Source of the DNA: Actinomycetes bacterium
GTDB taxonomy: Bacteria > Actinomycetota > JAICYB01
Length of the DNA: 64,000 bases
Assembly: GCA_025934435.1 (NCBI GenBank)
Contig: JAICYB010000001.1
Location: forward strand, 131,293 to 195,292
Reading direction: 5' to 3'
Shown here: positions 14,800-29,061 of the stretch, in pieces
Position numbering within the stretch: position 1 is the stretch's first letter
Layout: each line of letters starts with the position of its first letter
Position numbers and translations under genes: made by a program
The notes under the pieces: generated by a model
What the model was told of the DNA's origin: nothing
Databases searched by the model: none
What the model saw: only the letters and a program-made list of their open reading frames with translations

Positions 14800-14828
14800 C
14801 GCTTCGAAGACGTCCACGGAGCCGGAGC

Positions 14829-15920
14829 CTAATTGGTCGTGATCGTCCCGTGCTTGACGACTTCGAACGCGCTCCCGGGGACGTTCTTCATCTGGTTCAG
14901 ATCGTTGTCGTCCCAGCCGGTGTCCGTTGCGCCGGAGATGTACCAACTCGAACCGTTGTCCGCGAGGATCATGCCGTACTTCTTCAGTGCGCGAAGGATG
15001 ATGAGCGACGCGCCGTGATACGGCGTCAGGTCGAACGATGCTTTCAAGCGCAACCGGAGCCCCATCGGCGGCAGGTTCGGATCGGTGGACGACGAGGCGA
15101 AGTGACGCGCCGGAGCGACGTAGCCGCGTTGCGTGCGGGGCGCCGTGAAGCGCAGTGCGTGGTTGATGACACCTTGCTGGATCTCGCTTCGTCGCACGAG
15201 GCCGGGGAGGATCGGGAGCCCGGCGGCGTCGGCCGACGTCCATCCCGCCGGACGAAGCGCATCCGAGTTCAGGTTGAACACGGCGCCGGCGTCCGCGTTC
15301 CAGTGACCCTGCTGCGGCGACGCGTTGTACATCTCGTACAGGTGACACGTCCCTTGTTGCACGGCCAGGACGTGGTGATCGCTTCCCGACTCGATCGGTG
15401 CGTTCAGCGGAACGGGGTACGGACCGGGATCGCTCTCGCTTCCGTAGGCCGTGAAGTTGACGGGCTCGCCGGGCTGCGACTGCGGGACGACGATGAACGG
15501 GATCCCGTACGTCGGATCGGAACCGAAGTCCGGATGGACGTTGCTCGAGCCGATGCTCGCGACGTAGTTCGCGGAGTTCGGGTCGACGGGGTCATGGGAG
15601 ACATCGCGGCGCCACGCGTTGTCCGCGGGGAAGAGCTGGCACCCGCCGACGGACGCGCCTACCGGAGGCGCAGACGTGGTCGGCGCGGCCGTTGAACGCC
15701 GCACCTGCGTCGACGTCGAAACCGAAGCTCCTCCGTGAGGCGTCGCGCGCGGTGTCGTCGTGACGCTCACGCTCGCATGCGACGGCGAAGCGGACGGCGT
15801 AGATGCCGCCGATGTGAACGGCGTGATCGGCGGTGCGGCGGTGACCTTCAGGTGCACCGTCGGATGCGAGCACGACGCGCCGACCACGAGAAGAAGGACG
15901 GCGAACGCGCGATGCCGCAT
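14829..15920 (-). CDS. Secreted lipoprotein, hypothetical (Ser/Thr/Pro-rich linker plus ~250-aa C-terminal domain)
   Basis: Start at MRHRAFAVLLLVVGASCS (ATG at 15920). Confidence 0.55.
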   Translation of the reverse strand: MRHRAFAVLLLVVGASCSHPTVHLKVTAAPPITPFTSAASTPSASPSHASVSVTTTPRATPHGGASVSTSTQVRRSTAAPTTSAPPVGASVGGCQLFPADNAWRRDVSHDPVDPNSANYVASIGSSNVHPDFGSDPTYGIPFIVVPQSQPGEPVNFTAYGSESDPGPYPVPLNAPIESGSDHHVLAVQQGTCHLYEMYNASPQQGHWNADAGAVFNLNSDALRPAGWTSADAAGLPILPGLVRRSEIQQGVINHALRFTAPRTQRGYVAPARHFASSSTDPNLPPMGLRLRLKASFDLTPYHGASLIILRALKKYGMILADNGSSWYISGATDTGWDDNDLNQMKNVPGSAFEVVKHGTITTN

Positions 15921-15952: not shown

Positions 15953-16585
15953 TTACTTCTTCGCGGGCTGGAAGTACGGGTTCTGTCCCGACGCGTGATC
16001 GGTCGCGTCCGCGACGCGCTCGACTTCGGGCACCGCTTCTTTGAGCGTGACTTCGATCCCTTGCGTCAGCGTGACCGACGCCATGCCGCAACCCTGGCAT
16101 CCGCCCGAAAGCTGCACGAACGCCGTTCCGTCCTCGAAGCCGACGAAGTGCGCTCGGCCCCCGTGCGACGCGATGGCCGGATTGACGACAAATTCGAGCA
16201 CTTGGGCGATGCGCTCTTCGACCGTGCCTTCGAACGCCGACGGATCGATGTGCGACCCGACGGCCGGCGACGCGCTCGGACGGTTCGGGTTGTCGACGAC
16301 CCAGCCCGGGTTCAGAAGGTTCTTCGAGAGGTCGAGGGTCGCACCGCGGAGCTTGTCGACCGAGTCGGCCGGGATGACGATCCGGAGGCCGCCTTCGTCC
16401 TGGACGACATCGCCGTCGCGGATCGCGCCGTCGTCGTCGAAGTACAGGTCGTAGCCGTACTCGAACCCGTTGCCTTCGGTGACTTCGAGGAACAGAACGA
16501 GCTTCTCGCCGTCGGGTTCCTCGTCACGGACACCGATGGCCCGGTTCCGCGCGCGGTCGGTTACCTGGACGATCGTTTCGGCCAT
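15953..16585 (-). CDS. NfuA-like Fe-S cluster carrier (C-terminal NifU/Nfu domain)
   Basis: C-terminal FVQLSGGCQGCGMASVTLTQGIE CxxC Nfu motif. Confidence 0.75.
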   Translation of the reverse strand: MAETIVQVTDRARNRAIGVRDEEPDGEKLVLFLEVTEGNGFEYGYDLYFDDDGAIRDGDVVQDEGGLRIVIPADSVDKLRGATLDLSKNLLNPGWVVDNPNRPSASPAVGSHIDPSAFEGTVEERIAQVLEFVVNPAIASHGGRAHFVGFEDGTAFVQLSGGCQGCGMASVTLTQGIEVTLKEAVPEVERVADATDHASGQNPYFQPAKK

Positions 16586-16610: not shown

Positions 16611-17813
16611 ATGCCTCGTCTGCTTCTGGTCCTACCCAGCTCGACCTATCGTGCCCCGGATTTCCTCGCCGCGGCGCGAGCGGTCGGCGCTGAGGTGGTC
16701 ATCGCCTCCGAAGAACAGCAGACGCTGCTGACGCCGGAGCGGTTCGTCCGCATCGATCTCTGCGATCCCCAAGCCTCGGCCGAGCAGATCGCGGAGAACG
16801 GGATCGACGTCGACGCCGTCATCGGGGTGGACGAGCAAGGCGTCCTCTTCGCCGCCCATCTCGCCGCGCTGCTCGACCTCCCGCACAACCCGCCGCGCGC
16901 GGTCGCGACGACACGCGACAAAGCGCTCACGCGGATCGTCCTCACCGACGCCGGGCTCGACCAGCCCGCGCACCGGCTCGTGCACGACGGCGAGGTGCGG
17001 CGCGCGGCATCGTCCGTCGGGTATCCGTGTGTCGTGAAGGCGGTCGATCTGGCCGCGAGTCGCGGTGTGATCCGCGCGAACGACCCGGCCGAGGTCGATG
17101 CGGCCGCCGAGCGCGTCCGGGCGATCGTCGGCGAGGACGCACCACTGCTCATCGAGAGCTACGTCCCCGGCGCGGAGGTCGCGGTCGAAGGACTCCTCAC
17201 GGAGGGCAAGCTCGAGATCCTCGCGATCTTCGACAAGCCCGATCCGCTCGAAGGGCCGTTCTTCGAAGAGACGATCTACGTCACACCGTCGCGTCTCGAG
17301 CCCAAGGTGCAGACACGGATCACCTCGGCCGTGGGACGGGCCTGTGACGTGATCGGCCTCCGCGAGGGGCCCGTCCACGCCGAAGCACGCATCACGGACG
17401 AGACCGTCGTCGTGCTCGAGGTCGCGGCTCGGTCGATCGGCGGGCTGTGCTCCCGGACGCTTCGCTTCGGCGCCGGCATCTCGCTCGAGGAGGTCATCAT
17501 CCGGCACGCGCTGCACATCGATCCCGGATCGCTCCGGCGCGAGGGTGGGGCGTCCGGCGTGATGATGATCCCGGTTCCGTCGACGGGAAGGCTCGAGGCC
17601 GTCGACGGGCTGGACGAAGCACGCAGCACGGACGGCGTGATGGGTGTCGAGATCACCGTCCCGATCGGCCGGCAGATCGCCGCGTGGCCTGAAGGTGACC
17701 GTTACCTCGGTTTCATCTTCGCCAAGGCGGACGATCCCGCACGCGCGGAAGCGATCTTGCGCGAAGCGGCCTCTCAGCTGCGGGTTCGCATCGAACCAGT
17801 CGCAGCGAACTAG
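16611..17813 (+). CDS. ATP-grasp domain enzyme, unknown substrate
   Basis: Start at MPRLLLVLPSS (16611). YPCVVKAVDLAASRGVIRAN...LLIESYVPGAEVAVEGLL ATP-grasp core. Confidence 0.7.
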   Translation: MPRLLLVLPSSTYRAPDFLAAARAVGAEVVIASEEQQTLLTPERFVRIDLCDPQASAEQIAENGIDVDAVIGVDEQGVLFAAHLAALLDLPHNPPRAVATTRDKALTRIVLTDAGLDQPAHRLVHDGEVRRAASSVGYPCVVKAVDLAASRGVIRANDPAEVDAAAERVRAIVGEDAPLLIESYVPGAEVAVEGLLTEGKLEILAIFDKPDPLEGPFFEETIYVTPSRLEPKVQTRITSAVGRACDVIGLREGPVHAEARITDETVVVLEVAARSIGGLCSRTLRFGAGISLEEVIIRHALHIDPGSLRREGGASGVMMIPVPSTGRLEAVDGLDEARSTDGVMGVEITVPIGRQIAAWPEGDRYLGFIFAKADDPARAEAILREAASQLRVRIEPVAAN

Positions 17814-17971: not shown

Positions 17972-18709
17972 ATGAACACCACCCTTTGGTCAAGCACTGC
18001 CTCCAACTCGAAACCACTGCCCGCGCGACGTTCCACCGACGATCACGGCGCGAGGATCATCCGGATCCTCGTCGCCGCGATCGCCGCCATCCTGTGCATG
18101 GCGATCGCCCAGAGCGGGCACGCCGCGACGTCGCTCGAGTCGCAGTCGCTCGGCCTCGTGAATCAGGCCCGCGCGGCGAACGGACTTTCGGCGCTCCACA
18201 CGAACGCCGCGCTCGACCAGATCGCGACGCAGCACGCGGCCGAGATGGTCCAGCGCAACGAGATCTTCCACTACATGGACATCGGCAACCGCGCCGACGC
18301 CGCAGGCGTGCACTGGACGGACATCGGCGAGAACGTCGGCGTCGGACCGAGCGTGCAGGACGTCCAGAACGCGTTCATGCAGAGCCCGGGACACCGGCAG
18401 AACATCCTCTACGCGCCCTACAACCTGATCGGCGTCGGCGTCGCGGTCGCGAAGGACGGCAGCGTCTTCGTCGCCCACGAGTTCGCAACGGTTCCCGCGA
18501 CGTCCGCTCCGGCGCCCGCCGCCGAAAGCACGCCGGTCACCCAAAGCAACCCGGTCGTTCACCCGGCTTCCGCCCCGGTCACCGCTCCGGTCGTCGCTCC
18601 GAAGTCGGCCGCAACGACGGTCGTCCTCGCGAAGACGGCGACGCCCCCCGCGCTCAACAACACGACGTCGGTCGACCCGAACGCGCTCCTCGGCAACGTC
18701 GTCAACTAA
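17972..18709 (+). CDS. CAP/SCP/PR1-like domain secreted protein
   Basis: Signal peptide, then GLVNQARAANGLSALHTNAALDQIATQHAAEMVQRNEIFHYMD...GHRQNIL CAP-domain signature; Pro/Ala-rich tail. Confidence 0.75.
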   Translation: MNTTLWSSTASNSKPLPARRSTDDHGARIIRILVAAIAAILCMAIAQSGHAATSLESQSLGLVNQARAANGLSALHTNAALDQIATQHAAEMVQRNEIFHYMDIGNRADAAGVHWTDIGENVGVGPSVQDVQNAFMQSPGHRQNILYAPYNLIGVGVAVAKDGSVFVAHEFATVPATSAPAPAAESTPVTQSNPVVHPASAPVTAPVVAPKSAATTVVLAKTATPPALNNTTSVDPNALLGNVVN

Positions 18710-18765: not shown

Positions 18766-19737
18766 ATGGCGTTCTCGCACCGGACGGTCAAGACCAACGG
18801 CATCGACATGCACGTCGCCGAGATCGGCGAAGGCAAGCCCGTTGTGTTCGTGCACGGGTTCCCGGAGCTCTGGCGGTCGTGGCACAACCAGATGCCCGCC
18901 GTCGCGGATGCGGGGTATCGCGCGGTCGCACCCGACATGCGCGGCTACGGACGAACCACCGCTCCCGCCGAGGTCGACGCGTACAGCGTCCAGAACCTGA
19001 CCGGCGATCTCTGCGGATTGCTCGACGATCTCGGCGTCGAGAAGGCGCTCTTCGTCGGACACGACTGGGGCGCGTGGGCGATGTGGTTCATGTGCCTGCT
19101 GCATCCGGATCGCGTCGAGGCGCTCTGCAACTTGAGCGTGGCGTACGCGCCGCGCTCGGCCGGACCCCCGATCCAGATGATGCGCCAGATCTTCGGCGAG
19201 AACTTCTTCTATCAGATCTATTTCCAAGAGGTCGGTCCCGCCGATGCGGAGCTCGGACGTGATCCGCGGAAGACCGTGCGCCGGTTCGCGTGGTCGGTGT
19301 CGGGTGAGGCGGCGGAGGGACGGGACGAGAACGCGCTCTTCCAGATGATGCCGGCGAAGGACACCGGCTTCCTTGATCAGATGGCCGATCCGCCGGCCGG
19401 GAAGATGGCGTGGTTCACGAAGGAGGACGAGGACTACTTCGTCGAAGAGTTCTCACGAACCGGCTACTTCGGCCCCCTGTCGTGGTACCGCAACATCGAC
19501 CGCAACTGGGAGACGACGCCGGAGCTCGCGGACGCGAAGGTCATGCAGCCGGTGCTGTTCATCGCGGGCGCAGGTGATCCGGTCATCCGAATGCTCGCGC
19601 CCGACGGGATGCGCGAGACGGTGCCGAACCTGAAGGGGATCGACATCGTGCCGGGGGCCGGTCACTGGATCCACATGGAGAAGCCGGACGAAGTGAACAC
19701 ACGGCTCCTGAAGTTCATCAGCGACGTCGGGTACTGA
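18766..19737 (+). CDS. Alpha/beta hydrolase, epoxide hydrolase-like
   Basis: Start at MAFSHRTVKTNGIDMHVAEIGEG; HGFPELWRSWHNQ and GHDWGA motifs. The N-terminal 276 aa of the track ORF are Arg-rich junk. Confidence 0.8.
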   Translation: MAFSHRTVKTNGIDMHVAEIGEGKPVVFVHGFPELWRSWHNQMPAVADAGYRAVAPDMRGYGRTTAPAEVDAYSVQNLTGDLCGLLDDLGVEKALFVGHDWGAWAMWFMCLLHPDRVEALCNLSVAYAPRSAGPPIQMMRQIFGENFFYQIYFQEVGPADAELGRDPRKTVRRFAWSVSGEAAEGRDENALFQMMPAKDTGFLDQMADPPAGKMAWFTKEDEDYFVEEFSRTGYFGPLSWYRNIDRNWETTPELADAKVMQPVLFIAGAGDPVIRMLAPDGMRETVPNLKGIDIVPGAGHWIHMEKPDEVNTRLLKFISDVGY

Positions 19738-20194
19738 CGGCCTCCACGAACCGCTGCGGTTCGTCCGGTGAGACGACGTAACGCTTCTTCCCGTACTCGA
19801 GCACTACCGCGCGTGCCGGGTCGGTGAAGAAACCGTGGTACGTCCCGACGCTAGAGCTCCGGAACCATCCGCTGAACGCGAACATGCCGCCGTTCCCGAA
19901 CAGCCGCCACTGCGGCCACCGCAGCGTTACCCGGCGCGCATCCGTCAGGCCGCTTCGAGGGAGGCGGGTCGTCCAGATGAGCCGTTTGATCACGACGGCT
20001 TCGTCCGTGATCTCGTAGCCGCGGACCGCACTCAGGGCCGCGCCGACGAGGACCGCGACCACCAGCGGCAAGACGTAGTCGACCACGGGCGCGTCCGGTA
20101 CGCGCGCCATGACGAAGATCGCGTAGCCGATCGCGATGACGGCTACGACCGTCGTGATCTTCAGATGGACCGACCACGGAGCCCGGAACGTCAC
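19718..20194 (-). CDS. Membrane protein with 2 TM and a bacterial PH (bPH_2/DUF304-like) domain
   Basis: GTG start overlapping the DUF169 stop (GTGA); two TM helices, then YEITDEAVVIKRLIWTTRLP... Confidence 0.5.
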   Translation of the reverse strand: MTFRAPWSVHLKITTVVAVIAIGYAIFVMARVPDAPVVDYVLPLVVAVLVGAALSAVRGYEITDEAVVIKRLIWTTRLPRSGLTDARRVTLRWPQWRLFGNGGMFAFSGWFRSSSVGTYHGFFTDPARAVVLEYGKKRYVVSPDEPQRFVEAVSTRRR

Positions 20195-20901
20195 GCGAAG
20201 CGGCGTTTGTCCTCGGCCGCGTACGTCGCGACGTGTGCATCGGCCGCGACGGTCGCCCGCAGACGCTCGACGACCTCTTCGAGACGCGGCGCGGGGATCG
20301 CGCAGCTCATCTCGTCCGGCTTCATCCCCGTGCGCACGCGCGAGAGTGCGCAACCCACGCTCGCGGCGACCTCGCCTTGTTCGGCCGCGATCGGGACGAT
20401 GTGGCATTGCGGTTTGCCTTCGATGCGAAGTCCGGGCATCGCGTCGGACAGCGTCATCAGCTGCTTGCCGTCGACGCGGATGAAGACGACGTCGGGGTCG
20501 ATGGGCGTGTCCGCGAGCGGGCCGTAGGTGATGAAGTTCGACTTCTTCGACATCGTCGGGATCTTCGGAAAAACGTCCGGCGTCACCCAGCCCGCTTCGA
20601 CGAGCGCTGCGACGTCGGCGCGCGTCGCGGCTTCGGCGAGCTCGATCAATCCGTGGGTCAGGCTCCCGACGCTGCAGTTGCCGTGATCTTCGGGAACCGT
20701 CGTGAACGTGCGCTCCGCGCCGCGCATCCAGAACACGCAGCCCGCGGGGACGCGGCCGGTGCGCCCGTCCGCCGTCGGATCGGGCGCGGCCGCGTCGAAG
20801 CGTTCGACGCCCGGATCCTCGTCCGAGAACGTGATGCCGATCGGGGGTGCATCGAGGCGGAGCAGCTTCGTCAGATCTTCAGACAGTTGTTGCCAGGTCA
20901 C
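20191..20901 (-). CDS. DUF169 family protein
   Basis: GTG start overlapping the rSAM stop (GTGA); conserved PIGITFSDE...GCVFW...HGNCSVG pattern. Confidence 0.55.
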   Translation of the reverse strand: MTWQQLSEDLTKLLRLDAPPIGITFSDEDPGVERFDAAAPDPTADGRTGRVPAGCVFWMRGAERTFTTVPEDHGNCSVGSLTHGLIELAEAATRADVAALVEAGWVTPDVFPKIPTMSKKSNFITYGPLADTPIDPDVVFIRVDGKQLMTLSDAMPGLRIEGKPQCHIVPIAAEQGEVAASVGCALSRVRTGMKPDEMSCAIPAPRLEEVVERLRATVAADAHVATYAAEDKRRFA

Positions 20902-22232
20902 GTTGCCTCCGATCGAGCGAAGTCGAACTGTCCCTTCGTCGGCTCCGCGCAACAGAACCACGGTTCCGTCAGCCGCGGCCGATCTGTAACGACGACCTCA
21001 CTCGTTGGAACGGGACGGCCCGCCGCTTCGTATACGACGCTTCGAATGTCGCAGAAGACCGCTGCCGCGGACAAACCGCGCTCGGTCCCGTCCTCGACGA
21101 TCGCGGAGATCTTTCGTTGCAGCGCGTCGGTCGGCGACGTCCACCTGTACGAAAGTGTCTCGGGATCGTACGGACCGGCGTCCATCACGCCGAGCATGAG
21201 TGAACCTTCCGGAACGAGGAGACGGATCGAATACTGCACCGGATCGACGTTGCCGACGAGATCGTGCCGGGCGACGAAGTCGAGGATGTCGGCGACGTCG
21301 TCTGCCGTCGTCCACGGCGTGAAGGGGAGCCACGACGGACGGGTCTCGATCCCGTGGGATCGCAATAGTGCGACCACACGTGCTTCGTCCGCGGCGGTGT
21401 GTCCTTTGTCGAGCTTCTCGAGGATGAACTCGTTCACCGATTCGAATGCGCTTACGACGAACAGGCAACCTTGCTCCGCGAGGAGGGGGACGAGGCTCTC
21501 GTAGCGCAGGAGGTGCGAGACCTTCGCCGTCACGTCGAAGGTTACGTTCGGGAACCGCTGGTGCAGCATCTCGACGATCTTCATCGAGTGCGCCCAGCGG
21601 TTGAGGAAGTCGGGATCGCCGAACGTGATGTGCTCGGCTCCCGCTTCGATCTGCTGCGCGATGTCGTCCATCACGACGTCGACGGGGACGCGCCGCGTAC
21701 GACCGTCGTACACGACCGGCACCGGGCAGTGGCGGCAGCGGTGGACGCACCCGTGCGACGCCTCGACATATCCGGCGAGCCTGCGGGACGCACCGATCTC
21801 GAGCTGCGCGTAGCGCTCGAGCGAAGGAAGCGACTCACGGACGGGGAGATGGAAACGCTGGCGCGCGGTGGAGATCCGTCCGGAGGGAGCGACCCCGGCG
21901 AGCCATGCGAGCAGGGCCGGCTCGTACTCGCCGGCGAAGGCTTCGTCGGCGGGGCCCTTGACCGTCGCGTAGAGGCCGTAGAAGGCGATCGGCAAGCCGG
22001 GATGGTGCGCCTTGATCTCCTCCGCGCCCTTGATCGCGAGGCGCATCGCCGTGTGCATCGGGACGGAGAACGCGACGGCGTCTGCGCTCTCGATGAGGGC
22101 GGGAGCCCAGTCCTCGACGGAGATGTCGAGCGTCGTGACCTGGTGGCCCGCGGCGCGCAGAGCCGCGGCCGGCGATGCGATGTGCAGCGGCTGGTGGCCG
22201 AGCTCGTAGGTGGAGACGAGGAGAACGCGCAT
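20898..22232 (-). CDS. B12-binding domain radical SAM protein
   Basis: Start at MRVLLVSTYELGH (ATG 22232). N-terminal Rossmann/B12-like domain, then the CVHRCRHCPV CxxxCxxC radical SAM motif. Confidence 0.8.
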   Translation of the reverse strand: MRVLLVSTYELGHQPLHIASPAAALRAAGHQVTTLDISVEDWAPALIESADAVAFSVPMHTAMRLAIKGAEEIKAHHPGLPIAFYGLYATVKGPADEAFAGEYEPALLAWLAGVAPSGRISTARQRFHLPVRESLPSLERYAQLEIGASRRLAGYVEASHGCVHRCRHCPVPVVYDGRTRRVPVDVVMDDIAQQIEAGAEHITFGDPDFLNRWAHSMKIVEMLHQRFPNVTFDVTAKVSHLLRYESLVPLLAEQGCLFVVSAFESVNEFILEKLDKGHTAADEARVVALLRSHGIETRPSWLPFTPWTTADDVADILDFVARHDLVGNVDPVQYSIRLLVPEGSLMLGVMDAGPYDPETLSYRWTSPTDALQRKISAIVEDGTERGLSAAAVFCDIRSVVYEAAGRPVPTSEVVVTDRPRLTEPWFCCAEPTKGQFDFARSEAT

Positions 22233-22265
22233 GAAACCTAACCCTAACCCCCGGTTACCCTGGCG

Positions 22266-22916
22266 TTGATGCGTGTGTTCTTGCTCGACGATCACGAGGT
22301 CGTCCGTCGCGGTCTGGCGGAGATCCTTCGTGATGAGGACGGATTCGACGTCGTCGGTGAAGCCGCCACGAGCAGCGGGGCGCTGAAGCAGATCGCCGAG
22401 GCGCAGCCGGACGTCGCCGTCCTCGACGTCCGGCTCCCCGATGGAGATGGCGTCGAAGTGTGCCGGGAGATCCGGTCCGCCGTCCCCGACTGCCGCTGCC
22501 TCATCCTCACGGCCTTCGCGGACGACACCGCGCTCTTCGCGGCGATCGTCGCGGGGGCGTCCGGGTTCCTGCTGAAGACGGCACCGGCCGACGAGATGAT
22601 CGATGCCATCCGGACCGTCGGTTCCGGCGGATCCCTCCTCGACCCGGCCGTCGTGGAGCGCGTGTTCGAGCGCGTCCGCGAGCGGACGGAGAAGAAGGAG
22701 GATCCGCTCGCCGGTCTCACGCCGCAGGAGCACCGGATCTTCGATCTCATCGCGGGCGGTCTGACCAACCGGGAGATCGCCGAGCAGATGTTCCTCGCCG
22801 AGAAGACGGTGAAGAATTACGTGTCGAACCTCCTCGCGAAGCTCGGGATGTCCCGGCGCGTTCAGGCCGCGCTTTTGGCCTACGAGCTCCGTGACCAGCG
22901 CGAAAAGCCTGACTAG
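22266..22916 (+). CDS. LuxR/NarL-family response regulator (REC plus HTH_LuxR), orphan
   Basis: RVFLLDDHEVVRRGL...DVAVLDVRLPDGDG receiver; C-terminal LTPQEHRIFDLIAGGLTNREIAEQMFLAEKTVKNY. Confidence 0.85.
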   Translation: MMRVFLLDDHEVVRRGLAEILRDEDGFDVVGEAATSSGALKQIAEAQPDVAVLDVRLPDGDGVEVCREIRSAVPDCRCLILTAFADDTALFAAIVAGASGFLLKTAPADEMIDAIRTVGSGGSLLDPAVVERVFERVRERTEKKEDPLAGLTPQEHRIFDLIAGGLTNREIAEQMFLAEKTVKNYVSNLLAKLGMSRRVQAALLAYELRDQREKPD

Positions 22917-23490: not shown

Positions 23491-26400
23491 GTGAGAAGCC
23501 CGGCAGCAACGATGATGCGAAACAAAGCGGCGGCGATCCTTACTGCCGTTCTTCTTGTCCTTGGTGGGCTCGGCGGCGTAGCGATCGCCGTGACCGTAGG
23601 GGGCGGCACGCTCGGCAACTTCGAGAACGACGGCAACTTCGCCGTCGACCATGGTGGTCAGCTCGACTGGGCCAACGTGTCGTCCTCGAAGACCGTCGAC
23701 GACACAGCGGACAGCGGATTCACGCAAGGGTCGAAGGAACTCGACCCGAGCCAGTGGGTCTGCGGCACCGGCGGAGCGAACCCGGACAAGGGGAACATCC
23801 TCCGCGCCTACGTCGACGGGCGGATCAGCGCGAGCAGCGCGTTCATCGATCTTGCGTGGGTACGCCAGGGCGTGTCGGGAACCGGCGACGTCCACCTCAA
23901 CTTCGAGTTCAGCCAGAAGGGGACGGCACAGGACCCGGCGAGCTTCACGCCCGGCCCATGCGGGATCAGCCGGACCCAAGGCGACCTTCTGATCACCTAC
24001 GACTTCCCGGGCGGCAGCTCCGACCCGGACATCAAGGCGTTCAAGTGGGACGCGACCCCCGGCGGCGCCGACGAAGGCCAGTGGATCGACCAGAACTTGC
24101 CCGCGTCGGCCGCGAAGGCCGCCGTGAACCAGGTGACCGTCCACGACACCATCCAGAACGTCGACGTCGACCCCGGTCGCTTCGGCGAGGCGACGATCGA
24201 TCTGCTCGCCGCCATCCCGCCGGACGCGAACGGTCACTGCACGACGTTCGGCTACCTGAACGTTCGCTCGCGGTCGTCCGGTGAGTCGATCACCTCGGCA
24301 CTCCAGGACAAGCTTCCGACGACGGCGATCGATCTCTCCACCTGCGGCAAGATCGTCGTCCACAAGACGGACGACCATGTTCCGTCGCAACCGCTCGCCG
24401 GGGCCGTCTTCGGTCTCTTCAAGAACTCTCCGAACGGCGCGCCGATCGCGCAGGCGACGAGCCAGGCCGATGGTTCGGCCACGTTCGACACGGTCGACCC
24501 GGGCACGTACTACGTGAAGGAGCTCAGCGCTCCGTCCACCGACTACACGCTCGACTCGACGGTCGTCGGGCCGTTGACCCTGAACTTCCGCCAGACGCTC
24601 GACGTCACATCTCACGTCTTCGTCAACCCGCGCAAGGTCGGGTCGCTGCACATCATCAAGCTCGTCAACGACGGCAACGGCAACCCGATCACCCCGCTGA
24701 ACCTCGCGGGTCTCGACGGGACCTCCTTCGTGGTCTTCAAGGACGCGAACAACAACGGCACGTTCGACGCCGGTGAAGACGCGAAACTCTGGCCGGCACA
24801 GACGACGGACGCCACGTGCACCATCAGTGGCGGTCTCGGCTACTGCAACGTCGGCCCGCTGCCGACCGGCACGTACGGCGTGCACGAGATCACGGCGCCC
24901 GCGGGCACGCAGATGGGCCCGGACATCTTCCCGGTCGCGATCCTCGCCGCCGGTGCGACGGTCGATGTGCCGTTCACGAACACCGTTCGTGTCAACGCGC
25001 GTCTGTCGCTGACACCGAACAAGGCGGCCAACCAGGTCGGCAACAAGCACACCTTCACCGCGCACCTCGAGCTCGACCACGGCGACGGACACGGATTCGT
25101 GAACGCGCCGGCCGGCGAGACGATCAACGTCACCAAGGTTTCCGGTCCGGGAGCGCTCTCGGCTTCGAGCTGCGCGACCGACGCGAGCGGACAGTGCACG
25201 GTCGACCTCAACTCCTCGGTCACGGGTCTTACGACCGTTCGCGCGAGCTGGAACGGCCTCGTTTCGACGAATGTCGGCCCCGCGCCGGCGTCGACGACTT
25301 CGAACGATGCGGTGAAGCGGTGGACGGACGCGAAGCTCGTTCTGACGCCGCCGTCCGCAGCGAACCAGGTCGGGAACACGCACACGTTCTTCGGCGCGCT
25401 CTCCTTCGACTACGGCGACGGGCACGGGTTCGTCGCGGCGCCGGCCGGCGAAACGATCGGTTTCGTGAAGTCGTCCGGTCCCGGGACGCTTTCTTCGAGC
25501 GGCTGCTCGACGAATGCGACGGGCATGTGCTCCGTCAACCTCGACTCGTCCGTGACGGGTCTCACGACGGTGCACGCGAGTTGGAACGGGCACATCGCGA
25601 CCGCCGAAGGTGATGCGTCCGCATCGACGACGTCGAACGACGCCGTCAAGCGCTGGACGAACGCGCACCTCACGCTGTCGCCGAACGGCGCGGCGAACCA
25701 GATCAACAACAAGCACACCTTCACGACGCACCTGACCTTTGACTACGGCGACGGGAACGGTTTCGTCGACGCGCCGGCGGGTCAGACGATCAACGTCTCG
25801 AAGGTCTCAGGTCCGGGCGCGCTCTCGGCATCGAGTTGCACGACGGATGCCGGCGGACAGTGCACCGTCGATCTGACCTCATCGACGACGGGACTGACGG
25901 ACGTCAAGGCGACCTGGAGCGGCTCCATCGCGACCGCCGAAGGCAACGCGGCGGGGTCGACGAGCTCCAACGACGCGCTGAAGCGCTGGGTCGACGCGCA
26001 CCTCGCGCTGACTCCGCCGACGGCCGTGAACCGCATCGGTGACGTCCACACGTTCACCGCGACACTGACCTTCGACTACGGCGACGGGCAAGGTTTCGTC
26101 GCGGCACCGGCCGGCGAGACGATCGATATCTCGAAGACGTCCGGGCCGGGAGCGCTGTCGGCTCCGAGCTGCACGACGAACGCGAGCGGACAGTGCACGG
26201 TCGACCTCAACTCGTCCGTGACGGGAACGACCGATGTCCAGGCGAACTGGGCGGGCGACATCGCAACCGCGCAGGGCAACGCTGTGGCGACGGCGCAGGG
26301 ATCGGCCGAGAAGATCTGGGTCGACGCGCTGATCCAGATCTCACCGCCGCAAGCGGCGGACCAGGTTGGTGACAACCACGTGCTGACGATCGACGTCAGC

Positions 26401-29061
26401 GCGGTGACCGGCGGCGTCGCGTCGCCGGTGTCGGGCATCGATGTGCACGCGGCGATCACGAATGGTCCCGGTGGGTTCGTCGGTCCGGATGACTGCACGA
26501 CGAACGCGTCCGGCGAGTGCACGGTGACGATCAAGTCGACGACGACGGGCATCACGACGGTGCAGGCGTCGGCGGACGTGAACGTGAACGGCAAGATCGT
26601 TCACCTCGTCACCGACGGCCAGGGCAGCGACCCGGCCCCCGCGCAGAAGGTGTGGGTCAACGCGCACCTCACCCTCGATCCGCCTGCGGCCGCGAACCAG
26701 GTCGGAGTCACACACACATTCACCGCCCACCTGACGTACGACTACGGCGACGGTAAGGGCTTCGTCGACGCGCCGTCGGGCGAGACGATCGACCTCACGA
26801 AGGTCTCGGGTCCGGGCGCGCTCGCCGCGCCGAGTTGCACCACGAACTCGAACGGCGAATGCACCGTCGACCTGACGTCGGCTACGACGGGACTGACGAC
26901 GGTCGACGCGAGCTGGAACGGCCACATCGCGACGGCGTCGGGTTCCGCGAGCGCGAACGCGTCCTCGAACGACGCGCTCAAGCGCTGGACGGACGCGCAC
27001 CTGACGCTTTCACCGCCTGCGGCGGCGAACCAGGTAGGCAACAAGCACACGTTCACGGCTCACCTGACCTTCGACTACGGCGACGGGAAGAACTTCGTCG
27101 ACGCGCCGTCCGGTGAGACGGTTGATCTGACGAAGGCTTCCGGGCCGGGAACGCTCTCCGCGTCGAGCTGCACCACGAACTCGAGCGGCGAGTGCACGGT
27201 CGATCTGAACTCGGGCGTCACGGGTCTTGCGACCGTGGACGCGAGCTGGAACGGACAGATCGCGACGGCGCAGGGCGCGGCGAGCGCATCGGTGTCGTCG
27301 AACGACGCCGTGAAGCGCTGGATCGACGTCAAGCTCGACCTCACACCGCCGAGTGCGGTCAACCGGATCGGTGACGTCCACGTCTTCACCGCGCACCTGA
27401 GCTTCGACAGGGGTGACGCGAACGGGTTCGTGGACGCGCCGGCGGGCGAGACGGTCGACTTCTCGAAGCTCTCCGGACCGGGAACGCTCTCGGCACCGAG
27501 CTGCACCACGAACGCGAGCGGCGAGTGCACGGTCAACCTCAACTCGACGCAGACCGGTACGACGGATGTGGAAGCGTCCTGGGGCGGGCACGTGACGACG
27601 GCGCAGGGCGACGCGGTTGCGAGCACGCACGCCGACGCGGAGAAGATCTGGGTCGACGCGCTGATGATCATCAATCCGCCGCAGGCGGAAAACGAGGTCG
27701 GACACAACCACGTCTTCACGATCAACGTGAACCAGGTCGTGAACGGCGTGACGTCGGCCGCCGGCAACGTGGACGTCACAGCGTCCATCGTGAGCGGACC
27801 GGGTTCCTTCGTCGGGCCGAACACGTGCACGACGAACCCGGCCGGTGAGTGCACCGTCACGATCGTGTCGAACGACACGGGTGTCACGACGGTCGAGGCT
27901 GCGGCGACGGTGTCGGTCAACGGCAAGGCGATCAACCTGATCACGGACGGACAGGGCACGAACGCTCCGGCGGCAGTGAAGCGCTGGGTCAACGCGCGCC
28001 TCGGCGTGACGCCGCCCGACGCTACGAACATCGTGGGCCACGTCCACGTGTTCACCGCGCACCTCGAGCTCGACTTCGGCGACGGCAAGGGCTTCGTCAA
28101 CGCCCCCGCCGGCGAGACGATCTCGTGGGCCAAGACGTCGGGCGTCGGCGCGCTCTCGTCGAGCACGTGCACGACGGACGCCAACGGCACCTGCACGGAC
28201 GACCTGAACTCGACGGTCTCCGGTCAGACCGAAGTCGCCGCGACGTGGAACGGCACGATGGCGACGGCGCAGGGTTCGGCGTCGCTCGCACGGGCGGCCG
28301 AAGCACACAAGAACTGGGTCGCACACCCCGCGATCAACATCGTGAAGGGTGGCGCGGTGCTCGCGCACGAAGGCGACATCGTGACCTACTCCTTCAAGGT
28401 GACGAACACGGGCGACGTTCCGCTGGTGAACGTGGCCGTCACAGACGACATCATGGGTTCGATCGGAACCATCGGTAACCTCGCCGTCGGTCAGAGCAAG
28501 ACCGTGACGAAGGACTTCACGGTGCCGGCGAACTCGACGACGATCACGAACATCGGCAAGGCCTGCGGTGTCGACTCCGACAGCACGCAGGTGTGCGACA
28601 CGGACAACCACACCCTGTTCGTGATCCACCCGACGATCCAGATCGTGAAGACGGCGAATCCGACGACGGCGGACCCGGGTCAGACGGTGACCTACACCTA
28701 CGTCGTGACGAACCTCGGCGACACGACCCTGAACAACGTGGTCGTGACCGACGACATCATCGGGAACGTCGGCACGATCGCATCGCTCAAGCCGAACGAG
28801 TCTCAGACGCTGAAGAAGACGTTCACGGTCGCGGCGAACTCACCGCGGACGAACATCGGAAAGGCGTGCGGGACGGACGTCCTGAGCAAGACGGTCTGCG
28901 ACACGGACCCGGCGACGATCAGCATCGTCCTGCCGATCCCGCCGCAGCACCGGCTCCCGAAGACGGGACTCGAGCTCCTGCTCTGGACAGCGTTCGGCAT
29001 GGTTCTGACGGCAGCAGGTCTGGCGATGATGAAGACGCGCCGCTACTTCCTTCCCGAATAG
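23491..29061 (+). CDS. Giant LPXTG-anchored surface protein: signal peptide, unknown N-domain, 2 Cna-B/SpaA-like domains, 10 Ig-like tandem repeats, 2 DUF11 domains, LPKTG sorting signal
   Basis: 1856 aa. C-terminal LPKTG plus hydrophobic stretch plus KTRRYF. DUF11: IQIVKTANPTTADPGQTVTYTYVVTNLGDTTLNNVVVTDD. Cna-B-like: GAVFGLFKNSPNGAP...GSATFDTVDPGTYYVKE. Confidence 0.85.
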   Translation: MRSPAATMMRNKAAAILTAVLLVLGGLGGVAIAVTVGGGTLGNFENDGNFAVDHGGQLDWANVSSSKTVDDTADSGFTQGSKELDPSQWVCGTGGANPDKGNILRAYVDGRISASSAFIDLAWVRQGVSGTGDVHLNFEFSQKGTAQDPASFTPGPCGISRTQGDLLITYDFPGGSSDPDIKAFKWDATPGGADEGQWIDQNLPASAAKAAVNQVTVHDTIQNVDVDPGRFGEATIDLLAAIPPDANGHCTTFGYLNVRSRSSGESITSALQDKLPTTAIDLSTCGKIVVHKTDDHVPSQPLAGAVFGLFKNSPNGAPIAQATSQADGSATFDTVDPGTYYVKELSAPSTDYTLDSTVVGPLTLNFRQTLDVTSHVFVNPRKVGSLHIIKLVNDGNGNPITPLNLAGLDGTSFVVFKDANNNGTFDAGEDAKLWPAQTTDATCTISGGLGYCNVGPLPTGTYGVHEITAPAGTQMGPDIFPVAILAAGATVDVPFTNTVRVNARLSLTPNKAANQVGNKHTFTAHLELDHGDGHGFVNAPAGETINVTKVSGPGALSASSCATDASGQCTVDLNSSVTGLTTVRASWNGLVSTNVGPAPASTTSNDAVKRWTDAKLVLTPPSAANQVGNTHTFFGALSFDYGDGHGFVAAPAGETIGFVKSSGPGTLSSSGCSTNATGMCSVNLDSSVTGLTTVHASWNGHIATAEGDASASTTSNDAVKRWTNAHLTLSPNGAANQINNKHTFTTHLTFDYGDGNGFVDAPAGQTINVSKVSGPGALSASSCTTDAGGQCTVDLTSSTTGLTDVKATWSGSIATAEGNAAGSTSSNDALKRWVDAHLALTPPTAVNRIGDVHTFTATLTFDYGDGQGFVAAPAGETIDISKTSGPGALSAPSCTTNASGQCTVDLNSSVTGTTDVQANWAGDIATAQGNAVATAQGSAEKIWVDALIQISPPQAADQVGDNHVLTIDVSAVTGGVASPVSGIDVHAAITNGPGGFVGPDDCTTNASGECTVTIKSTTTGITTVQASADVNVNGKIVHLVTDGQGSDPAPAQKVWVNAHLTLDPPAAANQVGVTHTFTAHLTYDYGDGKGFVDAPSGETIDLTKVSGPGALAAPSCTTNSNGECTVDLTSATTGLTTVDASWNGHIATASGSASANASSNDALKRWTDAHLTLSPPAAANQVGNKHTFTAHLTFDYGDGKNFVDAPSGETVDLTKASGPGTLSASSCTTNSSGECTVDLNSGVTGLATVDASWNGQIATAQGAASASVSSNDAVKRWIDVKLDLTPPSAVNRIGDVHVFTAHLSFDRGDANGFVDAPAGETVDFSKLSGPGTLSAPSCTTNASGECTVNLNSTQTGTTDVEASWGGHVTTAQGDAVASTHADAEKIWVDALMIINPPQAENEVGHNHVFTINVNQVVNGVTSAAGNVDVTASIVSGPGSFVGPNTCTTNPAGECTVTIVSNDTGVTTVEAAATVSVNGKAINLITDGQGTNAPAAVKRWVNARLGVTPPDATNIVGHVHVFTAHLELDFGDGKGFVNAPAGETISWAKTSGVGALSSSTCTTDANGTCTDDLNSTVSGQTEVAATWNGTMATAQGSASLARAAEAHKNWVAHPAINIVKGGAVLAHEGDIVTYSFKVTNTGDVPLVNVAVTDDIMGSIGTIGNLAVGQSKTVTKDFTVPANSTTITNIGKACGVDSDSTQVCDTDNHTLFVIHPTIQIVKTANPTTADPGQTVTYTYVVTNLGDTTLNNVVVTDDIIGNVGTIASLKPNESQTLKKTFTVAANSPRTNIGKACGTDVLSKTVCDTDPATISIVLPIPPQHRLPKTGLELLLWTAFGMVLTAAGLAMMKTRRYFLPE
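24987..28320 (+). repeat. Ten diverged in-frame tandem coding repeats (~345 bp / ~115 aa) inside the giant surface-protein gene
   Basis: Unit consensus W.DA.L.L.PP.AANQVGN.HTFTAHL.FDYGDG.GFVDAP.GETI...K.SGPG.LSA.SCTT.A.G.CTVDL.S..TGLT.V.ASWNG.IATA.G; variant units at repeats 5 and 9. About 80% nt identity between units. Confidence 0.7.

Follow-up and report, generated by a model that had tools for sequence, protein, structure and literature searches.

A Cys-form CCAEP-tail radical SAM protein and its conserved gene partners in an Actinomycetes bacterium, with a possible ArsL-like chemistry

Gene organization of the locus

The locus lies in a 64,000-nucleotide stretch of DNA from an Actinomycetes bacterium, which was analysed as a whole and is referred to here as the window. 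It contains three reverse-strand genes encoding a radical SAM (rSAM) protein, a DUF169 protein, and a bPH_5 membrane protein, with the gene of a response regulator diverging from the first of them (Table 1).

Table 1. Features of the locus and the evidence for each of them
Feature	Position	Strand	Evidence
NfuA-like Fe-S carrier of 210 aa, with a degenerate A-type domain and a NifU domain with GGCQGCG	15953..16585	-	PF01106, 75.7 bits
L-amino-acid-ligase (LAL)-type ATP-grasp protein, 400 aa	16611..17813	+	ATP-grasp_4, 102 bits; LAL_C2, 70 bits; ATPgrasp_N, 30.5 bits
CAP/YkwD-family protein, passenger gene	17972-18709	+	Pfam CAP, 60 bits
Alpha/beta hydrolase, passenger gene	18766-19737	+	Abhydrolase_1, 99.7 bits
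bPH_5 membrane protein of 158 aa with two hydrophobic helices at its N-terminus; GTG start	19718..20194	-	PF10882, 58.8 bits
DUF169 protein, 236 aa; GTG start	20191..20901	-	DUF169, 78 bits across the whole profile; GTGA 20898-20901 shared with rSAM stop
CCAEP-tail radical SAM protein, 444 aa	20898..22232	-	NF040546, Pfam, recorded product, AF2 model, fold match
Inverted repeat TAACC-GGG-GGTTA, candidate regulator operator	22245..22257		Read from sequence, within the 33-36 bp divergent gap
NarL/LuxR-type response regulator; 215 aa if started at ATG 22269 (TTG 22266 possible)	22269..22916	+	Response_reg, 91.7 bits; GerE, 63.3 bits

The three reverse-strand genes are chained by two GTGA overlaps, which were read directly from the sequence. 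In the first, the TGA stop codon of the rSAM gene (20900-20898) overlaps the GTG start codon of the DUF169 gene (20901-20899), which has GGAGG 4 nt on its 5' side, and in the second, at 20191-20194, the DUF169 stop codon (TGA, 20193-20191) overlaps the GTG start codon of the bPH gene (20194-20192). Products identical in sequence to the rSAM and DUF169 proteins had already been recorded (P0001 and P0121), and the rSAM/DUF169 junction in relatives is either ATGA (L088, L089, and L090) or GTGA (L091), with a GGAG-type Shine-Dalgarno sequence upstream in each. The bPH start (V-T-x-x-F-K-A-P-W), directly 3' of the DUF169 stop, is conserved in L092 and L093. All three start codons are thus supported by the recorded products and the junctions of the relatives, and the chain of three translationally coupled genes stands as described in the initial annotation. 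Overlaps of 4 nt are common among co-directional genes, and the weight of the overlap is in its conservation in relatives, not in its mere presence.

When the regulator is started at ATG 22269, its length matches that of the regulators in L090 and L091. The gap to the rSAM gene, first given as 34 bp, is 36 bp from this ATG and 33 bp from the alternative TTG. The inverted repeat in the gap is partly conserved in L090 and L091, and no sigma-70 consensus promoter was found in this intergenic region. As stated before, no histidine kinase was found in the window, either by a motif scan or when another 20 large ORFs were searched with Pfam.

Family and fold of the radical SAM protein

The rSAM protein comprises an N-terminal Rossmann-like ("B12-binding"-type) domain, a core with the cluster motif C162-x3-C166-x2-C169, present as CVHRCRHC as noted originally, and a C-terminal tail PRLTEPWFCCAEPTKGQ. 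It had been described as a B12 radical SAM protein of unknown function, but HMM classification showed that it is not an anonymous member of that group. It matches the curated model NF040546, "CUAEP/CCAEP-tail radical SAM (seleno)protein", from end to end with 526.9 bits (curated cut-off, 500 bits), while the second-best model is that of ArsL with 250 bits, below the ArsL cut-off of 450, and all other rSAM models gave 42 bits or less. Its tail, ...PWFCCAEPT, carries the CCAEP motif and agrees with the family consensus ...PRLTEPWFC[C/U]AEPTxxQ. The profile match and the tail identify the protein as a Cys-form member of the CUAEP/CCAEP-tail family, not a Sec form. Of the three proteins said to be of unknown function, this one therefore belongs to a named family, although Haft and Gwadz termed the family uncharacterised; no later paper on it was found.

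The AF2 model of the rSAM protein (pLDDT 88) has AprD4 (PDB 6FD2), a radical SAM 1,2-diol dehydratase, as its top PDB fold match across both domains (Foldseek E 1e-16, TM 0.69), and AprD4 is also its top PDB sequence match with only 17% identity. AprD4 has a Rossmann-like N-terminal domain without cobalamin, like ArsL homologues, while it differs from the window rSAM in its canonical 5'-deoxyadenosyl (5'-dA) radical chemistry on an aminoglycoside, its lack of a Cys-Cys tail, and its other partners.

In Pfam, the protein scores 52 bits for Radical_SAM and 37.4 bits for B12-binding, which is above the cut-off of 32.1, and TsrM, OxsB, MgmA, TokK, and CysS, all cobalamin enzymes, are among its fold matches. 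These matches are consistent with a cobalamin-dependent class-B enzyme that methylates or rearranges a small molecule or lipid, with the DUF169 and bPH proteins as dedicated partners. However, we consider such an enzyme improbable. The top fold match is AprD4 and the top sequence relative is ArsL, and a 2026 review describes AprD4 and ArsL homologues as not binding cobalamin and their domain as only remotely Rossmann-like. ArsL works in vitro without cobalamin, and class-B equivalog models reach at most 42 bits against cut-offs of 251-650. The B12 profile claim therefore holds in the literal sense, whereas cobalamin use is not supported, and the "B12" label is nominal because ArsL homologues do not bind cobalamin.

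A conserved module split by a lineage-specific inversion

The gene neighbourhoods showed that the rSAM, DUF169, and bPH genes are not the conserved unit; the conserved partners are instead the ATP-grasp and NfuA-like genes, which lie beyond the region considered initially. Both an ATP-grasp and a NifU gene stand beside the rSAM gene in 50 of 62 well-flanked loci from species other than that of the window, these loci being mostly MAGs and phylogenetically not independent. The ATP-grasp gene is mostly immediately upstream of the rSAM gene, and one protein, P0353, is a natural ATP-grasp-rSAM fusion with an adjoining divergent NifU gene. In the window, the NfuA-like gene diverges from the ATP-grasp gene with a gap of 25 bp, and this divergent pair is kept in Actinomycetota and Chloroflexota. 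Based on these comparisons, the conserved module consists of a divergent NfuA-like carrier, a LAL-type ATP-grasp protein, the rSAM protein, and often DUF169. A lineage-specific inversion of the regulator-rSAM-DUF169-hydrolase block split this module, which explains why the ATP-grasp gene, directly upstream as the family norm, is here convergent with the rSAM gene, and why it and the NfuA-like gene are 3-6 kb away. The CAP/YkwD and hydrolase genes, which are passengers between the ATP-grasp gene and the inverted block, occur in the closest clade only; the 3' ends of the hydrolase and bPH genes overlap by 20 bp.

Among solved structures, the L-amino-acid ligase BL00235 (3VOT; E 9e-38) is closest to the ATP-grasp protein, which matches it over nearly its full length and shares the ATPgrasp_N, ATP-grasp_4, and LAL_C2 architecture with BL00235 and BacD. 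Since the likeness to BL00235 is at the family level only (134 bits), its substrate specificity is not transferable to the window protein. Unlike the window ATP-grasp, the characterised L-amino acid ligases have neither an rSAM nor an NfuA protein as a partner, while three Bacillota clusters with an ArsL-family rSAM also hold LAL-type ATP-grasp genes. The carrier has the two-domain layout with CxxC of NfuA, whose clients are LipA or MiaB, and it is paired with an rSAM gene, but it scores 96 bits against the NfuA model TIGR03341, below the cut-off of 269. It may just be the general Fe-S carrier of the organism.

The DUF169 assignment was upheld by its full-length profile match. Between roughly a quarter and a third of loci have a DUF169 gene in the cluster, where three different arrangements were seen, and DUF169 and rSAM genes occur together in 24 of 80 rSAM-centred and 41 of 80 DUF169-centred loci. 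The protein is rich in Cys and His; residues C55, H73, C76, H83, C166-H167, and C184 are invariant and C200 is nearly so. DUF169 is more conserved than the rSAM protein, with 87% vs 80% in L090 and 81% vs 66% in L089. A fold search with DUF169 gave no likeness to MerB or any solved structure.

Both the bPH protein and the response regulator were added recently and in this clade only. The membrane-anchored bPH protein, whose GTGA coupling would favour a cobalamin enzyme with dedicated partners, is restricted to the window, L090, L092, and L093 and is missing from all 80 species-level GTDB loci, so that of the proposed three-gene association the rSAM and DUF169 pair recurs more widely but bPH is confined to the closest clade. 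Lipid-metabolism genes were not conserved with the rSAM family either. The divergent regulator, likewise present here as claimed, is kept solely in the closest clade (L089, L090, and L091), and none stands beside the rSAM gene in the 80 GTDB loci.

ATP-grasp ligases and rSAM enzymes are common RiPP tailoring enzymes, and the conserved C-terminal tail resembles a recognition or carrier peptide. A pathway in which the two enzymes modify a short precursor, or the tail itself as a scaffold, is nevertheless highly improbable, in agreement with the initial annotation. Profile search found neither RRE/PqqD nor SPASM domains, and the ATP-grasp is of the LAL type (LAL_C2, nearest BL00235), not of the microviridin type. 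A precursor gene would not fit into the conserved core, where about 20-50 bp separate the NifU and ATP-grasp genes and the ATP-grasp and rSAM genes overlap or are fused, and clustering of ORFs of at least 90 aa gave no conserved small ORF.

Possible chemistry of the tail-bearing enzyme

In 28 of 80 relatives, an in-frame TGA replaces the second tail Cys, while the downstream frame and the AEPT motif are kept. This Sec/Cys exchange marks the second tail residue as reactive rather than structural. Mobile C-terminal CC/CU arms, such as the CC tail of MerA and the GCUG of thioredoxin reductase, bind Hg(II) or shuttle electrons. According to Haft and Gwadz, CU motifs are otherwise found in Hg- and organometal-related selenoproteins. 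One family member, P0266 (623 bits on NF040546), is fused to a domain like the organomercurial lyase MerB with the catalytic Cys/Asp motifs retained, a fusion with this single representative; its contig also holds a second MerB gene, whereas the window has none.

[quoted passage not shown] The window rSAM is collinear with ArsL over its whole length and shares the Rossmann-like N-terminus, the CxxxCxxC core, the post-core helices, and the C-terminal vicinal Cys-Cys. An RCCLKC-tail protein of B. cereus matches residues 1-367 with 32% identity (E 2e-68), the HMM-level relation between the two families is reciprocal, and both are accompanied by a LAL-type ATP-grasp gene. However, the CCAEP/CUAEP tail has two reactive residues and follows an inserted stretch of about 45 residues, while the RCCLKC tail has three. 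The setting is chromosomal and housekeeping-like with NfuA and DUF169 as partners, in contrast to the plasmid arsenic island of ArsL, and no ArsM, ArsN, ArsR, or Acr3 is nearby.

Based on this likeness, we tentatively favour a reaction like that of ArsL, in which a carbon–heteroatom bond is formed on an atom bound to the Cys-Cys tail and the amino-acid product is then ligated. The window rSAM would work like ArsL, its sole close characterised relative, and attach the ACP group to X, a soft atom for which S, Se, As, Sb, and Hg are candidates, bound to the vicinal Cys-Cys pair of the flexible tail; this pair is Cys-Sec in about one third of relatives. The product, a 2-amino-4-X-butanoate, would be a methionine- or arsinothricin-like amino acid, and the ATP-grasp protein would couple it to a second amino acid. 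BL00235 accepts methionine, itself a 2-amino-4-X-butanoate, as the N-terminal substrate and forms Met-Gly and Met-Met. NfuA would repair or supply the rSAM cluster, and DUF169, or the fused MerB-like domain in one relative, may bring X or remove the thiol-bound product from the tail. The ACP-type cleavage is proposed from the likeness to ArsL, which cleaves Cγ-S rather than C5'-S. The two tail Cys against three in ArsL, the lack of ars genes, the housekeeping-like flanks, and the single MerB fusion are points against this proposal.

The association with NfuA and the family-invariant C256, which is Val in the ArsL family, fit sulfur insertion with an auxiliary cluster equally well. A canonical 5'-deoxyadenosyl-radical enzyme could insert sulfur or selenium like LipA, BioB, or MiaB, with the CC/CU tail, perhaps together with C256, carrying a persulfide or perselenide or ligating a sacrificial auxiliary Fe-S cluster, the NfuA-like protein rebuilding that cluster, and the ATP-grasp protein activating or ligating a carboxylate substrate. 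In LipA and MiaB, sacrificial clusters are restored by NfuA-type carriers, and a NifU gene is paired divergently with the ATP-grasp/rSAM unit as described above. In Chloroflexota loci the rSAM gene is directly followed by LipB, LipA, and PDH E1/E2/E3 genes, and in Acidimicrobiia loci it is flanked by PDH E1, but only a minority of about 15 of 80 loci have lipoate or PDH neighbours of this kind. The fold matches include MiaB and lipoyl synthase, whereas MiaB, RimO, and LipA-type models score at most 18 bits or are absent, compared with 250 bits for ArsL. DUF169 loci without the rSAM gene adjoin ATP-sulfurylase and homoserine O-succinyltransferase genes. Truncation of the ArsL tail left the Fe/S content unchanged, indicating that the homologous tail there holds no cluster; a pair of adjacent Cys is also ill suited to ligate a single cubane, and Sec would be an unusual cluster ligand. 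We therefore regard sulfur or selenium insertion as possible but rather doubtful.

With regard to the substrate, which had been predicted to be a small molecule or a lipid, an amino-acid-type small molecule fits better, and the lipid found no support. No ars genes were found in the window or near any of about 170 loci, and without such an arsenic-resistance context a dedicated arsenic pathway is less likely. The flanks are housekeeping-like and include PDH E1, LipB/LipA, and SHMT, with which a core function fits better than a metalloid natural product.

Family membership of the radical SAM protein

The radical SAM (rSAM) protein matched NF040546, the model of the CUAEP/CCAEP-tail rSAM family, with 526.9 bits against a cut-off of 500, and its residues 3-437 aligned to profile positions 1-467 of 468. 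The second-best model was NF040542 (ArsL, RCCLKC-tail family; 250.2 bits, cut-off 450), and every other rSAM family model in NCBIfam, all cobalamin-dependent ones included, gave ≤42 bits, against cut-offs of 251-650 for the class-B equivalog families. The C[C/U]AEP motif is present at residues 419-435 (...PRLTEPWFCCAEPTKGQ), and the protein ends in ...PRLTEPWFCCAEPTKGQFDFARSEAT. The CVHRCRHC cluster motif reported in the initial annotation was recovered as C162, C166 and C169 of CxxxCxxC, which are invariant in our alignment A1. By profile score and tail motif, we classify the window rSAM as a Cys-form member of the CUAEP/CCAEP-tail radical SAM (seleno)proteins. It had been described as one of three proteins of unknown function; it is a catalogued NF040546 member and a sister of ArsL.

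Among 80 species-level relatives, 51 carry a CC tail as in the window and 28 a CU tail. In these 28, an in-frame TGA stands in place of the second tail Cys, and since the frame and the AEPT motif continue beyond it, we read them as Cys-Sec forms. The family is large, with 7,998 proteins at E ≤ 1e-10 among 8,000 candidates scored, 380 representatives of 50%-identity clusters at E ≤ 1e-30, and at least 578 confirmed relatives among GTDB species representatives. Among the matches listed, most belong to Thermoleophilia, Acidimicrobiia, other Actinomycetota and Chloroflexota. Cultured Thermomicrobium roseum has one member, on megaplasmid NC_011961.1 (locus L083, 8935-10386), beside a divergent PLP aminotransferase gene and an MFS transporter gene and without an ATP-grasp gene. 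Its annotation ends in ...PRLTESWFC and the tblastn match extends beyond the annotated stop; RefSeq has probably truncated a Cys-Sec selenoprotein here. On one MAG contig (L014, 3656-5050 and 9633-11027), two rSAM copies with identical tblastn scores lie in opposite orientation; the arrangement reflects an inverted duplication or, alternatively, an assembly palindrome. The only literature we found on CUAEP/CCAEP proteins is one sentence by Haft and Gwadz, who list the family as uncharacterised and regard CU motifs as otherwise typical of selenoproteins related to Hg or organometals.

The N-terminal B12-binding-type domain was supported by Pfam (PF02310, 37.4 bits against a cut-off of 32.1, residues 4-90) and by Rossmann-like strands in the AlphaFold (AF2) model (pLDDT 88), whose best structural match was AprD4 (TM 0.69), with TsrM, OxsB and MgmA behind. 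A review from 2026 on B12-rSAM enzymes describes the domain of AprD4 and of ArsL homologues as only remotely Rossmann-like and says that these proteins "do not bind cobalamin". The B12-binding-like call is thus correct as a statement on fold, but by analogy with these homologues cobalamin use by the window rSAM is unlikely and the "B12" label nominal. A true cobalamin enzyme, for which the fold would speak, appears very improbable, since the AprD4/ArsL homologues do not bind the cofactor and ArsL is active without it.

Both GTGA stop/start overlaps of the proposed operon were found when the minus strand was read directly (...GGAGGCAAC-GTGA-CCTGG at rSAM/DUF169 and ...CGCTTCGC-GTGA-CGTTCC at DUF169/bPH), and they are therefore real. 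The rSAM, DUF169, ATP-grasp and NifU products are on record with identical sequences, all from one 222-kb NCBI contig. The rSAM/DUF169 junction is ATGA in three relatives (L088, L089, L090) and GTGA in L091, each with a GGAG-type Shine-Dalgarno within the rSAM 3' end, and in L092 and L093 bPH begins with the same GTG-ACC (V-T-x-x-F-K-A-P-W) right after the DUF169 stop. We consider that the chosen starts of rSAM, DUF169, bPH, ATP-grasp and NifU are not arbitrary. Four-base overlaps are frequent between co-directional genes, and the weight of the rSAM/DUF169 overlap lies in the conservation of its junction. Pfam confirmed every domain call, and the support for DUF169 covers its full length (see the table). 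At their 3' ends, the bPH gene and the convergent alpha/beta-hydrolase gene overlap tail to tail (7 bp in L090), leaving no space for an intrinsic terminator.

Features of the window discussed in the text
Feature	Position	Strand	Details
HNH-motif ORF	12315-13310	+	C-terminal motif CHHVVPVAENGPT...CWNHHNLVH
Enoyl-CoA hydratase	13307-14173		
Nitroreductase	14164-14811		
363-aa protein	14829-15920	-	N-terminal hydrophobic segment; Ser/Thr/Ala/Pro-rich linker; no Pfam match
NfuA-like (NifU) protein	15953-16585	-	210 aa; PF01106 75.7 bits, above cut-off
ATP-grasp protein	16611-17813	+	400 aa; ATP-grasp_4 102.4, LAL_C2 70.1, ATPgrasp_N 30.5 bits, all above cut-offs
bPH/hydrolase 3' overlap	19718-19737		20 bp
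bPH protein	19718-20194	-	bPH_5 PF10882 58.8 bits (gathering 22.5), residues 59-156
DUF169/bPH overlap	20194-20191	-	GTGA
DUF169 protein	20191-20901	-	236 aa; PF02596 78 bits (gathering 27), profile positions 2-208 of 209
rSAM/DUF169 overlap	20901-20898	-	GTGA
rSAM protein	20898-22232	-	444 aa; Radical_SAM PF04055 52 bits
Regulator/rSAM gap	22233-22268		
TANNNT-like hexamer	22241-22246	-	TAGGGT
Inverted repeat	22245-22257		TAACC-GGG-GGTTA
Response regulator	22269-22916	+	Response_reg + GerE
Surface protein	23491-29061	+	1,856 aa

Conserved gene context and natural fusions

In order to define the conserved partners of the rSAM, 80 loci around its relatives from GTDB species representatives were searched with the window proteins. 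An ATP-grasp gene and a NifU-domain gene lie beside the rSAM gene in 50 of the 62 loci with enough flanking DNA (81%), mostly with the ATP-grasp gene immediately upstream on the same strand, in some loci overlapping the rSAM gene by one base, and the NifU gene divergent from it. Gene calls with Pfam labels place this NifU(-)/ATP-grasp(+)/rSAM(+) triad in Chloroflexota and several actinobacterial lineages. The rSAM/DUF169/bPH trio therefore did not hold as the conserved unit; bPH occurs in 0 of the 80 loci, and the informative partners are NifU and ATP-grasp, whose window genes lie 3-6 kb away from the rSAM gene, outside the reported operon. That operon does exist and has more to offer than three anonymous genes in a row, but its framing has to be corrected. 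The window NifU protein aligned over the full length of TIGR03341 with 96.4 bits against a cut-off of 269, and we assign it as NfuA-like rather than as an NfuA equivalog. By its architecture the ATP-grasp protein is classed as L-amino-acid-ligase (LAL)-type; its closest solved structure is the L-amino-acid ligase BL00235 (E 9e-38), which forms Met-Gly and Met-Met.

A fusion search of 1.84 billion cluster representatives gave two informative architectures. In P0353 (850 aa, GCA_004366215.1), an LAL-type ATP-grasp is fused in frame to a CCAAP-tail rSAM, and the gene adjoins a divergent NifU gene. In P0266 (695 aa; 623 bits on NF040546), a MerB-like domain (PF03243, 54.7 bits) follows the CCAEP tail and keeps the CWCAWD and SCFC motifs, matching the catalytic Cys/Asp residues of MerB. 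The 8.3-kb contig of P0266 (JGI 3300047160) also carries a second, standalone MerB gene and genes for a sulfotransferase, an FGGY kinase and a carbamoyltransferase.

DUF169 lies within 8 kb of the rSAM gene in 24 of the 80 loci, in three arrangements: directly downstream and coupled (window clade, L001-L003), directly downstream and convergent (L049, L054, L067, L075), or upstream and convergent with NifU. When the loci were centred on DUF169, NifU, ATP-grasp or rSAM adjoined it in 41 of 80 metagenome loci, although most contigs are short, and in 9 of the 14 with ≥6 kb upstream and ≥3 kb downstream. The co-occurrence of rSAM and DUF169 in relatives was thus borne out, and DUF169 is a genuine, if not universal, partner. 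It is more conserved than the rSAM (87% vs 80% identity to the window in L090, 81% vs 66% in L089), with invariant C55, H73, C76, H83, C166-H167 and C184 and nearly invariant C200. In the loci sampled, close copies were much commoner beside CC forms (16 of 43) than beside CU forms (1 of 19), counts that are phylogenetically non-independent. The confident DUF169 model (pLDDT 89) had no structural relative among solved structures. Away from the rSAM, neighbours of the close subfamily include ATP-sulfurylase and homoserine O-succinyltransferase, genes of sulfur and methionine metabolism (L104 6788-8050 and L143 7657-8760; two anecdotes). To our knowledge, this old family has no known function. 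In the literature we found only passing mentions, namely co-occurrence with selenium in Slackia, a position beside HgcAB and MerR in Nitrospina, and one beside SepRS in archaea.

Comparison within the closest clade (L089-L091) revealed a rearrangement. The order in L089 (rSAM 66% identical) is NifU(-), ATP-grasp(+), CAP(+), regulator(-), rSAM(+), DUF169(+), hydrolase(-), Big_1 surface protein(+), while that in the window is NifU(-), ATP-grasp(+), CAP(+), hydrolase(+), bPH(-), DUF169(-), rSAM(-), regulator(+), surface protein(+); the layout of the window recurs, on the opposite strand, in L090 (80%) and L091 (76%). The regulator-rSAM-DUF169-hydrolase block was therefore inverted in the window lineage. 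The divergent regulator/rSAM pair was kept through the inversion and is specific to this clade (seen in 0 of 80 GTDB loci). A bPH gene occurs only in the window, L090, L092 and L093 and is absent from L087, L088, L089, L091 and all 80 GTDB loci. Both were rejected as conserved partners, and from this distribution we regard them as local add-ons. The enoyl-CoA hydratase, nitroreductase, 363-aa hypothetical, CAP and hydrolase genes were likewise rejected, showing local synteny only. The 363-aa gene lies directly downstream of NifU and is conserved in L087-L091; it likely forms an operon with the nitroreductase, enoyl-CoA hydratase and NifU genes in this clade only. A ThiF-rhodanese neighbour suggested by ORF clustering was an artefact of alternative PDH E1 frames and is real in one locus only. 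The HNH-motif ORF, which adjoins the enoyl-CoA hydratase gene, may be what is left of a mobile element; we assign it to the DUF222/13E12-repeat kind, which is frequent in Actinobacteria.

The regulator had been described as lacking a cognate histidine kinase, and indeed none was detected, either in a motif scan or among 20 additional large window ORFs. Its gene is separated from the rSAM gene by 33-36 bp, and this gap contains the inverted repeat and the TANNNT-like hexamer, 8 nt ahead of the rSAM ATG. The short gap and the position of the hexamer suggest that the divergent transcripts are leaderless or near-leaderless. A scan for promoter and terminator consensus sequences gave nothing above chance and no consensus promoter in the gap. 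On its other side the regulator is flanked by the surface protein gene, which follows just downstream on the same strand in the window, L090 and L091; the regulator may therefore control the surface protein rather than the rSAM. The surface protein contains many near-identical modules of ~100 aa and ends in a hydrophobic segment after '...HRLPKTGLE', resembling a sortase LPxTG-type signal; its relatives have SpaA, Big_1 and CLIPPER_2 domains.

Relation to ArsL and the arsenic context

[quoted passage not shown] In vitro, it forms hydroxy-arsinothricin from SAM, As(III) and reductant without cobalamin, and the product remains protein-bound until oxidised or methylated. Over its residues 1-367, the window rSAM is 32% identical to a protein of the ArsL family with an RCCLKC tail (E 2e-68), and since this alignment begins at residue 1, the window rSAM has its N-terminal domain in common with ArsL. 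With its sub-cut-off NF040542 score, the window rSAM is an ArsL homologue, not an ArsL-family member. The ArsL tail is RCCLKC, with three Cys that bind As(III), whereas the window tail is CCAEP with two, and ArsL has ArsM, ArsN1, ArsR and Acr3 in its context, whereas the window rSAM does not. When nine ars-island proteins of Bacillota (ArsM, ArsN1, ArsR, ArsC, ArsD, Acr3, MIP, CobW-like and CMD proteins) were used as tblastn queries against the window and ~170 loci, none was found in the window or beside any CCAEP rSAM, and an arsenic pathway at the window locus was rejected.

Three Bacillota clusters with an ArsL-family rSAM (Bacillus cereus pAH820_272, Alicyclobacillus pAACI01 and Priestia p9) hold an LAL-type ATP-grasp gene, and we conclude that an ArsL-like rSAM and an amino-acid ligase occur together in each of the two sister families. 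The B. cereus and window ATP-grasps match each other at E 7e-19 and have identical top NCBIfam matches. All three clusters carry ArsN1 or a GNAT N-acetyltransferase; Alicyclobacillus has ArsM and an MFS transporter, and Acr3 is found in B. cereus and Priestia. In such Bacillota clusters, a carboxymuconolactone-decarboxylase-family gene followed by the ATP-grasp gene is a conserved pair (L084 1444-2667, L085 3436-4668, L086 3659-4882), which in L085 adjoins an MFS gene, ArsM and the rSAM. This gene content hints that a dipeptide form of arsinothricin or of its precursor may be produced as well; the ArsL papers that we consulted make no mention of it.

Candidate chemistry of the module

From the observed NF040546 membership, ArsL homology, Sec/Cys-variable tail, conserved module and fusions, we put forward an ArsL-like reading of the window rSAM tentatively, at somewhat below even chances. 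The rSAM would cleave SAM in the ArsL manner and join the ACP group to a soft atom on its C-terminal CC or CU arm, and the ligase would then link this methionine-like amino acid product to a second residue. NfuA would serve the rSAM cluster, and DUF169, or the MerB domain in P0266, would bring the atom or take off the thiol-bound product; since the ArsL product stays protein-bound, such a delivery or release helper is plausible. Four points count against this reading. First, arsenic context is absent everywhere searched. Second, the tail has only two Cys. Third, the rSAM flanks resemble housekeeping genes, among them, in some lineages, LipB, LipA and PDH. Fourth, the extra invariant C256 and NfuA would suit just as well an enzyme that inserts sulfur or selenium and has a sacrificial cluster. 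This sulfur- or selenium-insertion alternative is rather unlikely. A RiPP pathway seems most improbable, given that the rSAM has no RRE or SPASM domain and that the conserved core is too tight for a precursor gene; the earlier statement that no precursor peptide is nearby agrees with this, ORF clustering having covered ORFs of 90 aa and longer.

Returning to the ArsL-like reading, its widest form is doubtful. The NfuA/ligase/CCAEP-rSAM/DUF169 module would be a widespread second case of ArsL-type non-canonical chemistry, in which X, first bound to the Cys-Cys or Cys-Sec arm, would yield a 2-amino-4-X-butanoate and then a dipeptide. The product would be a previously unknown organo-chalcogen or organo-metalloid amino acid, and DUF169 a new soft-atom chaperone or product-release factor. 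The module occurs in Actinomycetota and Chloroflexota of soil, and the GTDB species representatives include at least 578 confirmed relatives. In sequence catalogues the window rSAM is one more NF040546 member; compared with systems already understood, it represents a new variation on the ArsL-type chemistry that we infer here.

These results correct a routine mis-annotation, in which genes of the CUAEP/CCAEP family are called "B12-binding radical SAM / YgiQ", and they give DUF169 its first consistent gene context, the NfuA/ATP-grasp/rSAM module. The family gains concrete, testable partners, namely an amino-acid ligase that also occurs fused, an NfuA-like Fe-S carrier, DUF169 and one MerB fusion, as well as a named cultured host, T. 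roseum. Should the function prove to be sulfur or selenium insertion with repair by NfuA, the module would nonetheless give little-studied soil phyla a new system for forming a cofactor or metabolite. A much larger sister family of ArsL with selenocysteine variants would show whether ArsL-type chemistry is general and which atoms besides arsenic it reaches.
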